From an uncultured Acidobacteriaceae bacterium (GTDB lineage: Bacteria > Acidobacteriota > Terriglobia > Terriglobales > Acidobacteriaceae), in contig CAWAJH010000010.1 of the NCBI GenBank assembly GCA_963782285.1, forward strand, positions 138,682 to 202,681: a DNA stretch of 64,000 nucleotides, in the 5' to 3' direction. The position numbers and the translations under genes are program-made. The notes beneath the pieces are model-generated. The model was given only the letters and a program-made list of their open reading frames with translations, was not told the DNA's origin and did not search any database. Below, piece by piece: positions 189 to 4,756 of the stretch; position 1 is the stretch's first letter, and each line of letters starts with the position of its first letter.

Positions 189-986
189 TCATTGATCATC
201 ATGCTTCCGCGGCTTGTTGGTCCGGGATTCAGTGAGAGCAACACGAGTCGTGCGGGCCGCACCGGCCATGGCCAAAAGGAAGCTTTCCATCTGGGGGGTG
301 AATTCGCGGCGCGCAGCCTCTTTCTGCGAGAAAGAGAAGATCCAATAGAACAAGGAACAGAGAGCAGCAAGCGACGCCCACCGCTCCAGGCGAGACCACT
401 GCAAATGGGTGTTTTGATGCGCCTGCAGGATTGAGACGACCACACTGACCAGCGAATAAAACCCAAGCCCCGCGGCTACTTGCAATTCGCGATCGCGCCA
501 GCCGATCGATAGCAATTCGCTACCTGCGGCCAAAATGAGAAAGAGCAGGATCCTGAGAATGGACACTGTCTGCTGCAGTTGAACCATAAAGAGCCACTGC
601 CGTGACGAGTCATGCGCAAGAGCGGGGACGGCGGCGAAGGGCCAGATGGCCGCGCCCGCTGCCAGAATCAAGACAGCCACAATGACTAAAACGCCGCGCG
701 ACAGGGATGCCTGGATCGGCCGGAGAGTAGACCAGGCGATTTCCACCATAACGCAGACGAGGAAAGCCGAATCGATCGCGATCTGGATGAAGTACGTGTC
801 AAAATATTTGCTGGGGTAGTGGCGCATGACTGAGTACACGACAATATCGCTCAAAATGTCCCAGACAACATAGGAACAAAAGACAGGCAGAATGCGCCAT
901 ACGCGCCTATAAATGAGCAGCACAATCACGACGGCATCGGTCAAAATGACAGCCGCGAAAACCGCGTTGTCAAAACTTATTGACAT
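189..986 (-). CDS. 7-TM integral membrane protein of unknown function (candidate peptide receptor)
   Basis: ATG 986 (MSISFDN) with a G/A-rich RBS; seven hydrophobic segments joined by short charged loops; hydrophilic C-tail; downstream of and co-oriented with the repeat-peptide gene. Confidence 0.85.
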   Translation of the reverse strand: MSISFDNAVFAAVILTDAVVIVLLIYRRVWRILPVFCSYVVWDILSDIVVYSVMRHYPSKYFDTYFIQIAIDSAFLVCVMVEIAWSTLRPIQASLSRGVLVIVAVLILAAGAAIWPFAAVPALAHDSSRQWLFMVQLQQTVSILRILLFLILAAGSELLSIGWRDRELQVAAGLGFYSLVSVVVSILQAHQNTHLQWSRLERWASLAALCSLFYWIFSFSQKEAARREFTPQMESFLLAMAGAARTTRVALTESRTNKPRKHDDQ

Positions 987-1276
987 CCCGTCCGCTCCCC
1001 CCAATTGGTTGACTCGAGGATAGCAGCATTATCGGTGAGGCGAGAGGAACGAACGCGGCGCATGTACCCAAATAATATAGACGGGTAGAAGGTAAAATAC
1101 CCACGTGCCAATACAGGCGGGACTCAACACAGACAATGAAAACAACCTGGAAGCGATCTGTGCGCCGTCCGACCTTCAGTCACGAAACAACGTCGGGCTG
1201 AGAAGACAGCCGAGCGTGGGAATTGGTTCTTGCACCCGCCGTTAGCATGCGAAGCGGCGAACCCCGCCGTATTTGC

Positions 1277-1696
1277 CTAGCTGACTGCGAGCGCGCCAGC
1301 AGAGGGCGGTATGGGGAACGGAAATGCGTTTGCCGCGCTGGCAGAGGGCGGTATGGGGAACGGAAATGCATTTGCCGCGCTGGCAGAGGGTGGTATGGGA
1401 AACGGAAATGCGTTTACCGCGCTGGCAGAGGGCGGTATGGGGAACGGAAATGCATTTACCGCGCTGGCAGAGGGCGGTATGGGGAACGGAAATGCATTTA
1501 CCGCGCTTGCAGAGGGCGGTATGGGGAACGGAAATGCGTTTACCGCGCTGGCAGAGGGCGGTATGGGGAACGGAAATGCATTTACCGCGCTGGCAGAGGG
1601 CGGTATGGGGAATGGAAACGCAAACCCCGTGCTGGCGCAAGCCAATAACACCGTTAAAAAGGCAACTTTAACTAGGTTCAAATCATTCGTACGCAT
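1277..1696 (-). CDS. Secreted multi-core peptide precursor (signal peptide + 8 x FPFPIPP cores with SASA(V/A)NA spacers)
   Basis: GGGAGA RBS before ATG 1696; Sec-type signal MRTNDLNLVKVAFLTVLLACASTGFA ends exactly at the first core; repeat variation is synonymous except one V/A change. Confidence 0.85.
   Translation of the reverse strand: MRTNDLNLVKVAFLTVLLACASTGFAFPFPIPPSASAVNAFPFPIPPSASAVNAFPFPIPPSASAVNAFPFPIPPSASAVNAFPFPIPPSASAVNAFPFPIPPSASAANAFPFPIPPSASAANAFPFPIPPSAGALAVS
1298..1618. repeat. 42-bp coding tandem repeat, ~7.6 units
   Basis: Unit GCAGAGGGCGGTATGGGGAACGGAAATGCRTTTRCCGCGCTG repeated head-to-tail with no spacers. Confidence 0.97.
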
Positions 1697-2696
1697 TGAC
1701 ACATCTCCCAGCAGCAGACAGCCGCCATACAACGTTTGCTCAATAAGAGTAACCCAAACCGACCAGGCCTGCTACAACAAAAGTGCAATTGCAAATATTT
1801 TTTTCCGGTAGTACTCATTCGGCTGTCCTTATGGTAATCAACGCTAGGTTACCTGGCATAAGTTTTGTTGAATCTTCGCCTTATCGGGGCGAAAGAGACG
1901 CAAAAGTTTCGACTTACGCGTAGCGATGGGGAAACTTCCTCGCGCGAAGACTGCACGCGATCCGGTGCAAGGCGAGGTTTCGCAGCTGGTCTGCGCGCCC
2001 AATCAAGGTCGTATCAGCGTGCTGGCTGAGTTACGCAAGGATCAGGGCGCGATTACTGTCCAGGAATGCCCATCGAATTGCGTCCGGAAGGGAAAATGGG
2101 CGTAAATCCGAAGCGCGACTCTTAGGTTTCGCAGGGTAAATACCAGCAATCATCTATCTGTTTCGATCTGCTGCCAAAGCCAGTGCGATTGATTTCACTC
2201 GGGGGAGATGCAGCGAGTTCCATACGCTTTGTTCGCGCGATACTTTGCCAGAGCAGCTTTGCCGCAGACCAAGGGACGCTCCGCGATCCATCAAACGGCC
2301 AATCGAGTGGCGGAAGTCGAGACCGATCGGACGAAACAACTTTAGATTGAGTTCCGACTGAATTTGACGAGCCAGCGGTGCGGGGATGACGAGCGCGGCG
2401 AGAAGGCGATAAAGCGCAGTGGAAGAGCGCGGCTGCGGTCAACAGATAAAAGGTTTTGTGCCGCCAAGAACAGTCGCTGAAGGGTTCACCAATTTCAGTT
2501 TGCGATTCACGCTCTCACCGGAGGGATCCGTTTGCAGTGAGCGGATTGGAAGGGCAAAAGATTCGAGATTTGGGGAGTGGTAAGGGGCGTTTCAAAGACG
2601 CTGCCGGAAGGTTACTACTCTGGAAACTTTCGTGCCCTATGGTAAATAAGGAAAAACAGTTACAGTGACACCAGGGTACATACTCAGGTCAAGCAT

Positions 2697-3065
2697 ATGA
2701 GTTCTCCCAATCCAGATTCACCGCTTCCGCCCGGTTCGCCTGCGCCCTCACAAGGACGGCAAGAGGTTCGTTGTGCGGTGCGATTTCCCCTTTCTTTGCC
2801 GGTGACATTAACGGCTCGCGAGGAAGAGGGTGAGGTCGCTGCGTCCACCAGAAATGTTTCCGCGAGCGGTGTCCTTTTTTCATTGGACCGGGACTTAGAG
2901 GTTGGAGCCGACATTCGCTTTTCAATGCGAATGCCCCATACGGTGCTTGGCTCCCCCAATGATGTTATGGTCCATTGCAAGGGGCGTGTGGTACGCTGCT
3001 CCTCAAGCCATAATGAGCATCTCGCTGCTGCCACTATCGACGATTATCGATTTGCGGAGCATTGA
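2697..3065 (+). CDS. Stand-alone PilZ domain protein (c-di-GMP receptor)
   Basis: RxxxR (RCAVR) and D/NxSxxG (NVSASG) motifs; GRVVR strand. Confidence 0.85.
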   Translation: MSSPNPDSPLPPGSPAPSQGRQEVRCAVRFPLSLPVTLTAREEEGEVAASTRNVSASGVLFSLDRDLEVGADIRFSMRMPHTVLGSPNDVMVHCKGRVVRCSSSHNEHLAAATIDDYRFAEH

Positions 3066-3095: not shown

Positions 3096-3842
3096 ATGGA
3101 AATCCTAGACGATAAACCTGAAGGCGAAGCTGTCGAAACCCCGATCAAGCCCGGGACAATCCGCGTGATTCTTGCGGATTCCCAGGCGATTTATCGAGTC
3201 GGGATTCGCAAAGTGTTCGCCCTAGAAGACGATATTCGCGTCGTAGCACAGGCAGATTCTCTGGAGAATCTGCGCGCGGCGATCGAGCGCTATCCGAGCG
3301 ACGTTGTCCTGTTAGAAGGAAGCATGCTGGCGGGCACGTCGAACGTGATTCCAGAATTACTGCGTCTTGCGCCGAGCGTGAAGCTGATTGTGCAGGCTGT
3401 TCAGGCAGACGAGAACCACACGGTTGAGCTTTACCGTCGTGGCGTGCGCGGCATTGTTTCGCGCTCGATTTCGCCGGATCTGCTGGTACGCTGCGTGCGC
3501 CGCATCGCCGCAGGCGAAACCTGGATCGACAACCAATCGGTGAATTGGGTGATTGAGGCTTATCGCGCCCAGGCAGCCTCGCTTGTGAGCCCGCGGAGTC
3601 AGCCGCGCCTTTCTCCCAAGGAAATGTCGATCATCACCTGCATCACGCAAGGGAAGCGCAACAAAGAAATCGCTTTCCAACTGGGCACCACGGAGCAGGT
3701 GATCAAGAATTATTTGCGCAAGATTTACGACAAGCTCGGTGTGTCAGACCGGCTCGAGCTCGCTCTCTATTGCCTGCACAACAAAATCATCCAGTCCGAA
3801 CTAGACGAGGAGACGGTGGCGCACAAGATCGTCACCCAATAG
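3096..3842 (+). CDS. NarL/LuxR-family response regulator with atypical receiver domain
   Basis: REC-like N-terminus; LSPKE...GKRNKEIA...KNYLRKIYDKLGV LuxR HTH. Confidence 0.92.
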   Translation: MEILDDKPEGEAVETPIKPGTIRVILADSQAIYRVGIRKVFALEDDIRVVAQADSLENLRAAIERYPSDVVLLEGSMLAGTSNVIPELLRLAPSVKLIVQAVQADENHTVELYRRGVRGIVSRSISPDLLVRCVRRIAAGETWIDNQSVNWVIEAYRAQAASLVSPRSQPRLSPKEMSIITCITQGKRNKEIAFQLGTTEQVIKNYLRKIYDKLGVSDRLELALYCLHNKIIQSELDEETVAHKIVTQ

Positions 3843-3900: not shown

Positions 3901-4386
3901 CTATTCACGTAGCTCCGGCTCGCCGCAGGTTTGCCGGGCAAGTTCCAACAACCGGATCATCTCTGACAATTCAAACTCATTGAGATGCCCGAGAAGTTCG
4001 ATGGGCATGCGATGAATGGTCGGATCCATGGCGCGGAGTATGTCCAGCCCGGATTGGGAAATTTGCGTCCGGACGACACGACGATCCTGGCGGTCGCGAT
4101 GCCGGCGGATCAGTTTGAGGCGCTGGAGGCGGGCTAGCAGGCGGGTAATGTCTGGCTCCGCCGTGATCATGCGAGCCCCGATGGCGGCGCAGGTGAGCCC
4201 CTCCGGCGGTGCACCGCGCAGGATTCGTAAGACGTTGTATTGGGTCGAGGTCAGTCCCCAGCCGCGGGTTTTTTGCTGGAAGGCTCGCTGCAGGCAATCG
4301 GAAGTGCGCATGAGATTAAGGATCGCCTCTTCCTCCGGACTGGAGAAGGGTGCCGACTGAGCAATTTCAGATTTCAAGTTCGTCAT
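3901..4386 (-). CDS. MarR family transcriptional regulator
   Basis: LTSTQYNVLRILRG...PDITRLLARL...DRR motifs. Confidence 0.92.
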   Translation of the reverse strand: MTNLKSEIAQSAPFSSPEEEAILNLMRTSDCLQRAFQQKTRGWGLTSTQYNVLRILRGAPPEGLTCAAIGARMITAEPDITRLLARLQRLKLIRRHRDRQDRRVVRTQISQSGLDILRAMDPTIHRMPIELLGHLNEFELSEMIRLLELARQTCGEPELRE

Positions 4387-4432: not shown

Positions 4433-4756
4433 ATGCATCAGAGTAAATACTCGTTGCAACAAGTATTCTCTGCCGGCTTCGCTATCGCTGCGCTGATGCA
4501 GTTCATGGTGCAGGACGCCTGGGGCGGAGTTCCGGCATACCTTACCGAGTTGTCGCCGGCTCCAGTGCGCGCCACCGCTGCCGGCTTGGCGTGCCAGCTG
4601 GGAGCGCTCATCTCGTCGTGGAATGGTGAAGGGCAAGCTCTGGCAGCGGAGCGCTGGGGCAACTATCCATCGGTGCTCGCGATCACCGTTGCAGTGGTGC
4701 ATTGGCCCTGGCAGGCCTGGCAGCATTGGGCCGCGAAGCGGTGGGCACGGAGATAA
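4433..4756 (+). pseudogene. C-terminal remnant of an MFS (Jen1/NanT-like SHS family) transporter
   Basis: MQFMVQxAWGxVPAYLTELSPAPVRAT..GLAxQLG motif; N-terminal part absent and motifs degraded. Confidence 0.7.

Follow-up and report, generated by a model that had tools for sequence, protein, structure and literature searches.

The stretch of DNA analysed here, the window, comprises 64,000 nucleotides (nt) of contig CAWAJH010000010.1 (assembly GCA_963782285.1) from an uncultured Acidobacteriaceae bacterium. Its minus strand carries a small gene for a putative exported precursor, built of eight tandem proline-rich units, followed by a gene for a seven-transmembrane (7-TM) protein. We tentatively read this pair, together with a third gene encoding a partner of 172 amino acids (aa), as the local copy of an Acidobacteriaceae-specific three-gene envelope module acting in self-peptide sensing. 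The gene set is conserved across the family, selection acts on each copy of the repeated peptide, and the 7-TM protein is conserved on its cytoplasmic side and divergent on its periplasmic side. Export, cleavage, binding, signalling and output of the module are deduced from these patterns and are described conditionally below.

A conserved pair of precursor and seven-helix genes

The two genes and their parts, in order of transcription, are as follows.

1704..1709, minus strand: ribosome-binding site GGGAGA of the precursor gene, with the ATG 8 nt on (sequence reading)
1277..1696, minus strand: exported repeat-peptide precursor gene, 139 aa, stop included (translation, and orthologous genes at the equivalent position)
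1619..1696, minus strand: predicted Sec signal peptide, residues 1-26, ending ACASTGFA (sequence rules)
1280..1618, minus strand: eight tandem 14-residue units, each an FPFPIPP core with an SASA(V/A)NA spacer, the final end being SAGALAVS (Tandem Repeats Finder)
987..1276, no strand: 290-nt spacer between the precursor and 7-TM genes (fold z-score 0.06)
995..1000, minus strand: ribosome-binding site GGGGAG of the 7-TM gene, with the ATG 8 nt on (sequence reading)
189..986, minus strand: seven-helix membrane protein gene, 265 aa, stop included (translation, alignment A1 and AlphaFold2 model)

The first-pass annotation of this DNA had described the precursor as a 139-aa open reading frame (ORF) with a ribosome-binding site, a signal ending in TGFA and eight FPFPIPP cores separated by SASA(V/A)NA, and the translation bears out each of these particulars. 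The predicted signal peptide consists, by sequence rules, of a basic n-region with Lys and Arg, a hydrophobic core and small residues at positions -1 and -3, and the same layout is present in the orthologues. The cores begin directly after ACASTGFA; five of the spacers read SASAVNA and two SASAANA, and SAGALAVS forms the tail. Tandem Repeats Finder delimited the array at 1292-1622, with a period of 42, 7.9 copies, 94% matches and a score of 578. The tetrapeptide LLAC could be taken for a lipobox, yet its Cys is missing from most orthologues, and the lipoprotein reading was rejected because this residue is not conserved in the relatives. The 139-aa precursor has no match in Pfam or NCBIfam. The 7-TM gene had been placed about 290 bp downstream on the same strand, and the gap is exactly 290 nt; no convincing terminator-like site, attenuator or unusual structure was found in it. 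The ATG at 986 was preferred as its start over a TTG at 1004 because the homologues start at the equivalent Met.

The 7-TM gene is single-copy in the source genome, which by its named homologues belongs to a Terracidiphilus-like Acidobacteriaceae bacterium. Orthologues are encoded in 33 of 36 genomes of the same genus; the 24 genomes examined from the sister family have none. Profile matches, a tally that combines orthologues and distant paralogues, were found in 131 of 201 family genomes, representing 97 of 142 genera, while about 276 genomes from elsewhere in the Acidobacteriota gave one weak match. One unpublished genome (G062) is included in this tally and in that of a LuxR-type regulator considered below (198/201), and a second (G085) in the latter; the claims about peptides, 7-TM orthologues and partners rest on neither. 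The homologues derive from SPRUCE, Stordalen and other bog, fen and soil metagenome-assembled genomes (MAGs), and across the family the locus is single, syntenic and vertically inherited in each genome.

The precursor gene is conserved together with the 7-TM gene, which upholds the earlier proposal that they form a cognate pair. Counting loci with enough upstream sequence, about 48 of the 50 orthologous 7-TM loci inspected (26/27 loci within the genus and 22/23 in other genera) have, immediately upstream and in the same orientation, a gene for a signal peptide followed by Pro-rich repeats. An independent set of named public MAGs gave 73 of 76 loci, so that the lack of an adjacent secreted Pro-rich gene, named beforehand as evidence against the pair, is not what the homologues display. 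In relatives the gap between the two genes is 39-215 nt. Because the pair is conserved in about 120 other genomes, it is more than a chance neighbourhood. The precursor signal peptides are still recognisably related between species; the core sequence differs in nearly every species, as in VPAGPVHLPPP, APWGPTKFPPP, SPIIVPPPPP, IPAGPFPTPPP, GPGIPVPLPPTQPP and RPSAPAP, and FPFPIPP itself was absent from all other loci inspected. Precursor genes are often missed or mis-framed by gene callers. In some genomes of the genus the 7-TM gene is immediately followed by a second, diverged paralogue that lacks its own peptide gene (L023 8375-9037, L024, L009 2307-3020, G031:C12 and G122:C76).

The multi-copy design of the precursor, part of the original description, is maintained by selection. 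When units were compared with one another within the same gene and pooled over 36 genes, the proportion of synonymous differences (pS) was 0.25 and that of nonsynonymous differences (pN) 0.027; the window precursor gave 0.18 and 0.015, respectively. Several precursor genes reach a pS of 0.4-0.5 between units with zero amino-acid change. Low pN at substantial pS indicates that the identity of the copies is held by selection on the peptide, and not only by recent copying of DNA. Divided by region, with the four residues used to define units left out, pN/pS was 0.02 for the Pro-containing core and 0.29 for the longest Pro-free stretch, that is the spacer. The Pro core is thus the constrained part of the unit. 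Spacers also vary in length inside single precursors, and the cores stay identical.

The number of units ranges from 1 to 16. Single-core precursors, with a signal peptide and one core, occur in two genomes (G035 and G236) and a two-unit form in a third (G065), variants which argue that one unit is the functional entity. Runs of N break the repeat region of the precursor in some MAGs (L048 and L054; G121 and G137), and in one assembly (G025) the signal peptide and the repeats are in different frames; assembly evidently struggles with the repeats, and MAG-derived copy numbers are therefore minimum values. The predicted signal-peptide cleavage site coincides in many species with the start of the first unit. 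The spacers have a high content of Ala, Ser, Gly and Val and no dibasic protease sites.

The seven-helix protein and its helical partner

The AlphaFold2 model of the 265-aa protein contains seven membrane-length helices and a C-terminal helix at residues 231-256, with a predicted local distance difference test score (pLDDT) of 78.8, in line with the seven segments reported by the first-pass annotation. The polar helix residues listed there are all present (D17, D43, D47, D72, E82, Q135/Q136 and R145). Seven residues precede helix 1 and the tail has about 45 residues. Over 114 homologues the mean net charge of the predicted cytoplasmic loops is +8.3 versus -0.8 for the periplasmic loops, which fits the predicted topology with the N-terminus out and the C-terminus in.

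Conservation follows this topology. Across 51 orthologues the inner, cytoplasmic half scores 0.62 and the outer half, defined as the periplasmic loops and the outer half-helices, 0.42. All 14 near-invariant residues are in the cytoplasmic half, those of the loop motif GWRDRELQ and of the tail motif REFTPQM among them; no periplasm-facing residue of the orthologues is near-invariant, and no His or Cys is conserved in the 26 orthologues aligned. This combination argues against a periplasm-facing enzyme. The statement that the protein has no enzyme, kinase or transporter motif also withstood the searches: neither Pfam nor NCBIfam returned a match, hence none to an enzyme, kinase, transporter or GPCR (G-protein-coupled receptor) family, and a PDB sequence search with the 7-TM profile gave nothing meaningful, KdpB being at chance level (E 0.9). 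A library of 1.84 billion proteins yielded 1190 representative relatives, all of about 260 aa, and no fused output domain was found in the best 150 of these.

The fold comparison gave a divided answer to the check suggested earlier. GPCR-type bundles were the sole look-alikes of the model in the PDB, and their scores lay in the weak range expected of generic bundles. Foldseek returned GPCRs only (E 0.05-0.3, TM-score 0.3-0.5). In an exhaustive structural alignment GPCR-fold chains, among them LYCHOS, EP2, taste and adhesion receptors and a designed GPCR-like fold, filled the top 50 with Z 9.6-11.7 and root-mean-square deviations of 4-5 Å, values that lie in the generic helical-bundle range and that, as the tool itself warns, may reflect a common arrangement only. 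Rhodopsin was not among the fold matches listed, and helix 7 (residues 194-220) lacks any Lys that could bind retinal. The nearest named cluster in the ESM Atlas was a 7TMR-DISM/LuxR protein, with a TM-score of 0.55 over 209 residues.

A third, obligatory 172-aa component and the family-wide distribution go beyond what the first-pass annotation had noticed. Of 18 large loci, 12 have the partner gene behind the 7-TM gene. It is present in 27 of the 201 family genomes, among them every one of the 24 that encode a 7-TM orthologue; of the remaining three, one has a fragment of the 7-TM gene alongside and two are outliers of one genus. Outside the genus it starts between -7 and +50 nt from the end of the 7-TM gene. 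Within the genus an orthologous 7-TM gene is accompanied by an orthologous partner in 28/28 genomes, and in five genomes the sole 7-TM gene is a distant paralogue, with a likewise distant partner paralogue immediately downstream of it; the class of the 7-TM protein, orthologue or distant paralogue, therefore agrees with that of the partner in 33/33 genus genomes.

The partner has no family in Pfam or NCBIfam. Its model comprises an N-terminal membrane helix and a predicted cytoplasmic bundle of four to five helices (pLDDT 79). The structural matches were vinculin tail, FAT domain, designed bundles and Rsd (Z 7.8); all are generic helical bundles, and an informative fold identity was rejected. 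In the source genome the gene is separated from the pair and lies as follows.

G000 contig C5:200100-200612 (L078:1501-2016), minus strand: 172-aa partner gene, adjoining an aldo-keto reductase

An aldo-keto reductase flanks the partner gene in other genomes too. The same separation of the partner from the pair is found in the closest relatives (G025, G020, G016, G026, G017, G029, G011 and G036), which suggests that this sub-clade underwent a rearrangement.

Distant 7-TM subfamilies in other genera are arranged in a similar way, with a small signal-peptide ORF upstream and usually a partner-like gene downstream (L065, L067, L068, L071, L073, L074, L075 and L076). Their upstream ORFs are non-repetitive, with 30-45 mature residues and in several cases a hydrophobic tail, e.g. 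DYASIVISVFGL; sometimes two stand in tandem. The distant paralogues share 23-29% identity in same-genus examples. Longer 7-TM forms of 303-328 aa (L066, L069, L072, L076 and L077) occur without a partner.

Possible self-peptide sensing and the alternatives

If the module senses its own peptide, the Sec pathway would export a small precursor consisting of a signal peptide and 1-16 identical Pro-rich peptides joined by loose spacers rich in Ala, Ser and Gly. The units, either freed by a periplasmic protease or kept joined as a multivalent chain, would then bind the periplasmic face of the 7-TM protein. Its fast-evolving outer face would change upon binding, and the conserved cytoplasmic loops and tail would relay this change to the membrane-anchored helical partner, which in turn may control a cytoplasmic output. 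We infer a contact between peptide and 7-TM protein because the genes are linked and because the latter is variable outside and conserved inside.

Direct tests of such a contact gave hints of uneven quality. In 41 genomes a partial Mantel test, a method known to over-call, related the distance between peptide cores to that of the outer half of the 7-TM protein given the inner half (r 0.29, p 0.0002), and the reverse test, inner half given outer, gave r 0.03. In 114 pairs the raw net charge of the unit was anticorrelated with the charge of the periplasmic loops (rho -0.31, p 0.0007), and no anticorrelation with the cytoplasmic loops was found in the same pairs. A co-fold of the 7-TM protein (alignment A1) with three precursor units, run without controls, scored 0.00 and speaks neither for nor against binding.

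Several results weigh against self-peptide sensing. The co-variation of peptide and receptor, which had been put forward as a check, did not survive phylogenetic control: independent contrasts gave r -0.06 (p 0.53), a sign test 41/66 (p 0.06), and an independent-pairs comparison was without statistical power. Co-variation and charge complementarity were accordingly set aside as evidence and are kept as weak hints. A signal-peptidase-like -3/-1 motif at the spacer ends was found in 26 of 40 cases versus 23.7 expected from shuffled spacers (p 0.25), so the spacers show no positional motif beyond their composition, they point to no processing route, and the idea that their ends mimic the signal-peptide cleavage site was dropped; in the large loci examined, no protease is conserved near the 7-TM gene either. 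Neither the 7-TM protein nor the partner contains a recognisable signalling domain. The GPCR match lies within the range that generic helical bundles give. Homology to 7TMR-DISM was rejected, as hmmscan gave no PF07695 match and hhalign, run against aligned genuine PF07695 segments of the genus, a probability of 1.5%. In a diderm cell a Sec product is periplasmic, so that signalling from cell to cell would need an extra export step. Export, cleavage, binding and output are, finally, all predictions from gene and protein sequences.

In its design the putative sensing module resembles, by analogy, an alpha-factor-like precursor coupled to a receptor and transducer pair such as sensory rhodopsin with Htr. 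The yeast prepro-alpha-factor MFalpha1 consists of a signal peptide and tandem identical peptides, and its receptor Ste2 is a 7-TM protein with the N-terminus out and the C-terminus in. Both systems have tandem identical short peptides with spacers, a seven-helix partner without enzymatic domain and a peptide that varies between species. They are unrelated in sequence, the bacterial precursors are without dibasic Kex2 or Ste13 sites, and the bacterial genes are adjacent and accompanied by a third, membrane-anchored protein. We know of no heterotrimeric G protein or arrestin partners in bacteria. Sensory rhodopsin II is a 7-TM sensor without output domain that works with a separate membrane-anchored transducer, HtrII. 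The module likewise has a stand-alone 7-TM protein and, apart from it, a membrane-anchored protein with a helical cytoplasmic part, encoded by adjacent or co-transcribed genes; unlike sensory rhodopsin II, it lacks the retinal Lys of helix 7, its presumed stimulus is a peptide, and its partner has one membrane helix and a small bundle of four to five helices instead of a methyl-accepting coiled coil.

Known bacterial systems are less similar. The 7TMR-DISM proteins (PF07695/PF07696) also contain a bacterial seven-helix sensor module, but the protein described here shares no sequence or profile similarity with them and lacks both an extracellular DISMED domain and a fused output domain of the kinase, cyclase or HTH type. 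In Agr of the Bacillota, AgrD carries a single core without a Sec signal, the peptidase AgrB has a catalytic His and Cys, and AgrC is a histidine kinase. A small precursor gene beside that of a polytopic membrane protein, and the diversification of peptide and partner into specificity groups, are common to Agr and the module; the catalytic His and Cys of AgrB are missing from the 7-TM protein, and the Agr receptor is a histidine kinase. The first-pass annotation did not recognise the pair as a described system, and full-text literature searches likewise found no description of it.

Were self-peptide sensing confirmed, the module would be the first peptide-ligand system with a GPCR-style receptor and transducer described in bacteria. 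It would add one of the few examples of peptide signalling from a diderm phylum and would parallel, in bacteria, the poly-peptide pro-hormones of eukaryotes. In acidic soils and peat the Acidobacteriaceae belong to the most abundant bacteria. A species-specific peptide 'dialect' would bear on kin recognition or on the regulation of envelope and biofilm in these poorly cultivated organisms. It is conceivable, if doubtful, that the modules make up a new bacterial signalling class, in which GPCR-like receptors and single-pass transducers each serve a self-encoded, Sec-exported peptide and co-diversify as species-specific dialects. The peptide of the main subfamily might then, with similar reservation, be made as a poly-peptide precursor that joins up to 16 Pro-rich units of identical sequence. 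Even under the alternatives considered next, the analysis would give a functional context to three unannotated, family-wide protein families: the 7-TM proteins (about 1190 representative clusters), the partners and the precursors.

An unlikely alternative is that the 7-TM protein and its partner form a machine for maturation, escort or export, which would process, modify, cyclise or hand over the precursor at the membrane, the bioactive Pro-rich product acting on a target elsewhere; the product could, for example, be a linear or cyclic hepta- to dodecapeptide. A precursor gene followed by membrane-protein genes is the usual layout of peptide natural products, and the cores are hypervariable between species and their flanks simple, as this alternative would have it. 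Multi-core precursors with signal peptides and Pro-rich cores are known from sponge macrocycles, where up to 25 Pro-rich core repeats are framed by flanking recognition sequences (PMC10945851). The likeness lies in the signal peptide and the repeated, short, hypervariable Pro-rich cores; the sponge precursors, however, are from animals, conserve their recognition sequences and vary their cores within one precursor, whereas the cores of the module are identical. Evidence of cyclisation is absent from the module, and the sponges are without a known receptor gene. In the biosynthesis of TMcin, uncharacterised intramembrane proteins process and escort the bacteriocin (PMC13712780), which offers a precedent for the role assumed here. 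The near-invariant residues of the 7-TM protein are, however, all cytoplasmic, with no typical catalytic Cys, His or Ser among them, and the protein matches neither AgrB, CPBP, rhomboid or site-2 protease nor any other enzyme family. The partner is a plain helical bundle, and the conserved neighbours of the 7-TM gene include no protease, cyclase, YcaO-type gene, recognisable modifying enzyme or ABC exporter.

It is rather improbable that the precursor remains intact as a structural envelope protein, a periplasmic or surface polymer of polyproline type which the 7-TM protein and its partner would anchor, assemble or monitor. The selection, spacer and copy-number data fit unit-wise function better than a structural polymer: spacer length varies within one protein while the cores are invariant (pN/pS 0.02), single-core and two-unit variants exist, and the copy number runs from 1 to 16. 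Tandem Pro-rich repeats are typical of extended structural linkers and the negative motif test of the spacers would agree with an uncleaved chain, but the precursor has no anchoring or sorting motif, and distant paralogous modules use the non-repetitive peptides of 30-45 residues mentioned above. The PilZ gene and the CsgD-like atypical LuxR regulator that adjoin the locus in many genera recall matrix loci; the regulator is near-universal in the family (198/201) and hence not specific to the module.

Very improbable, lastly, is a toxin and immunity pair, with antimicrobial or otherwise harmful units and a 7-TM immunity protein of the producer that diversifies with the peptide: many bacteriocin loci likewise encode a hypervariable secreted peptide and, behind it, a polytopic membrane protein, and the outer face of the 7-TM protein evolves fast, but the Pro-rich units are short and for the most part uncharged, a double-glycine leader, a dedicated exporter and a mobile-element context are all absent, each genome across the family has one syntenic, vertically inherited locus, and a conserved cytoplasmic face with an obligatory cytoplasmic partner would be unexpected for an immunity protein.

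Neighbouring genes

Upstream of the precursor gene, the window carries three further genes.

2697-3065, plus strand: PilZ-domain protein, divergent from the precursor gene
3096-3842, plus strand: LuxR-type response regulator, atypical, with a sub-threshold receiver match, divergent from the precursor gene
3901-4386, minus strand: MarR regulator

The arrangement of PilZ, LuxR-type and MarR genes recurs upstream in 16 of 18 large loci, and the conserved neighbours as a whole are these three, the 172-aa partner and the aldo-keto reductase. The PilZ protein and the LuxR-type regulator were considered as dedicated partners of the module and rejected, since the regulator is near-universal and in places unlinked: many of the 198 genomes encoding it have no orthologous 7-TM gene, and in several genomes the two genes are on different contigs. 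The neighbourhood is therefore treated as inherited synteny and not as evidence of partnership.

Half of the large loci (9/18) contain an optional gene of 420-500 aa between the PilZ and precursor genes, divergent from the latter, e.g. L036:6901-8412(+). It is absent from the window. Its product has no Pfam or NCBIfam match, and a 504-aa version gave no meaningful match in a PDB sequence search. The ORF at 4433-4756 on the plus strand of the window has a match only to the last ~100 residues, at the C-terminus, of a transporter-like protein of 516 aa that relatives encode at the equivalent position (L023 and L024), and judged by this partial match the gene looks truncated in the window.

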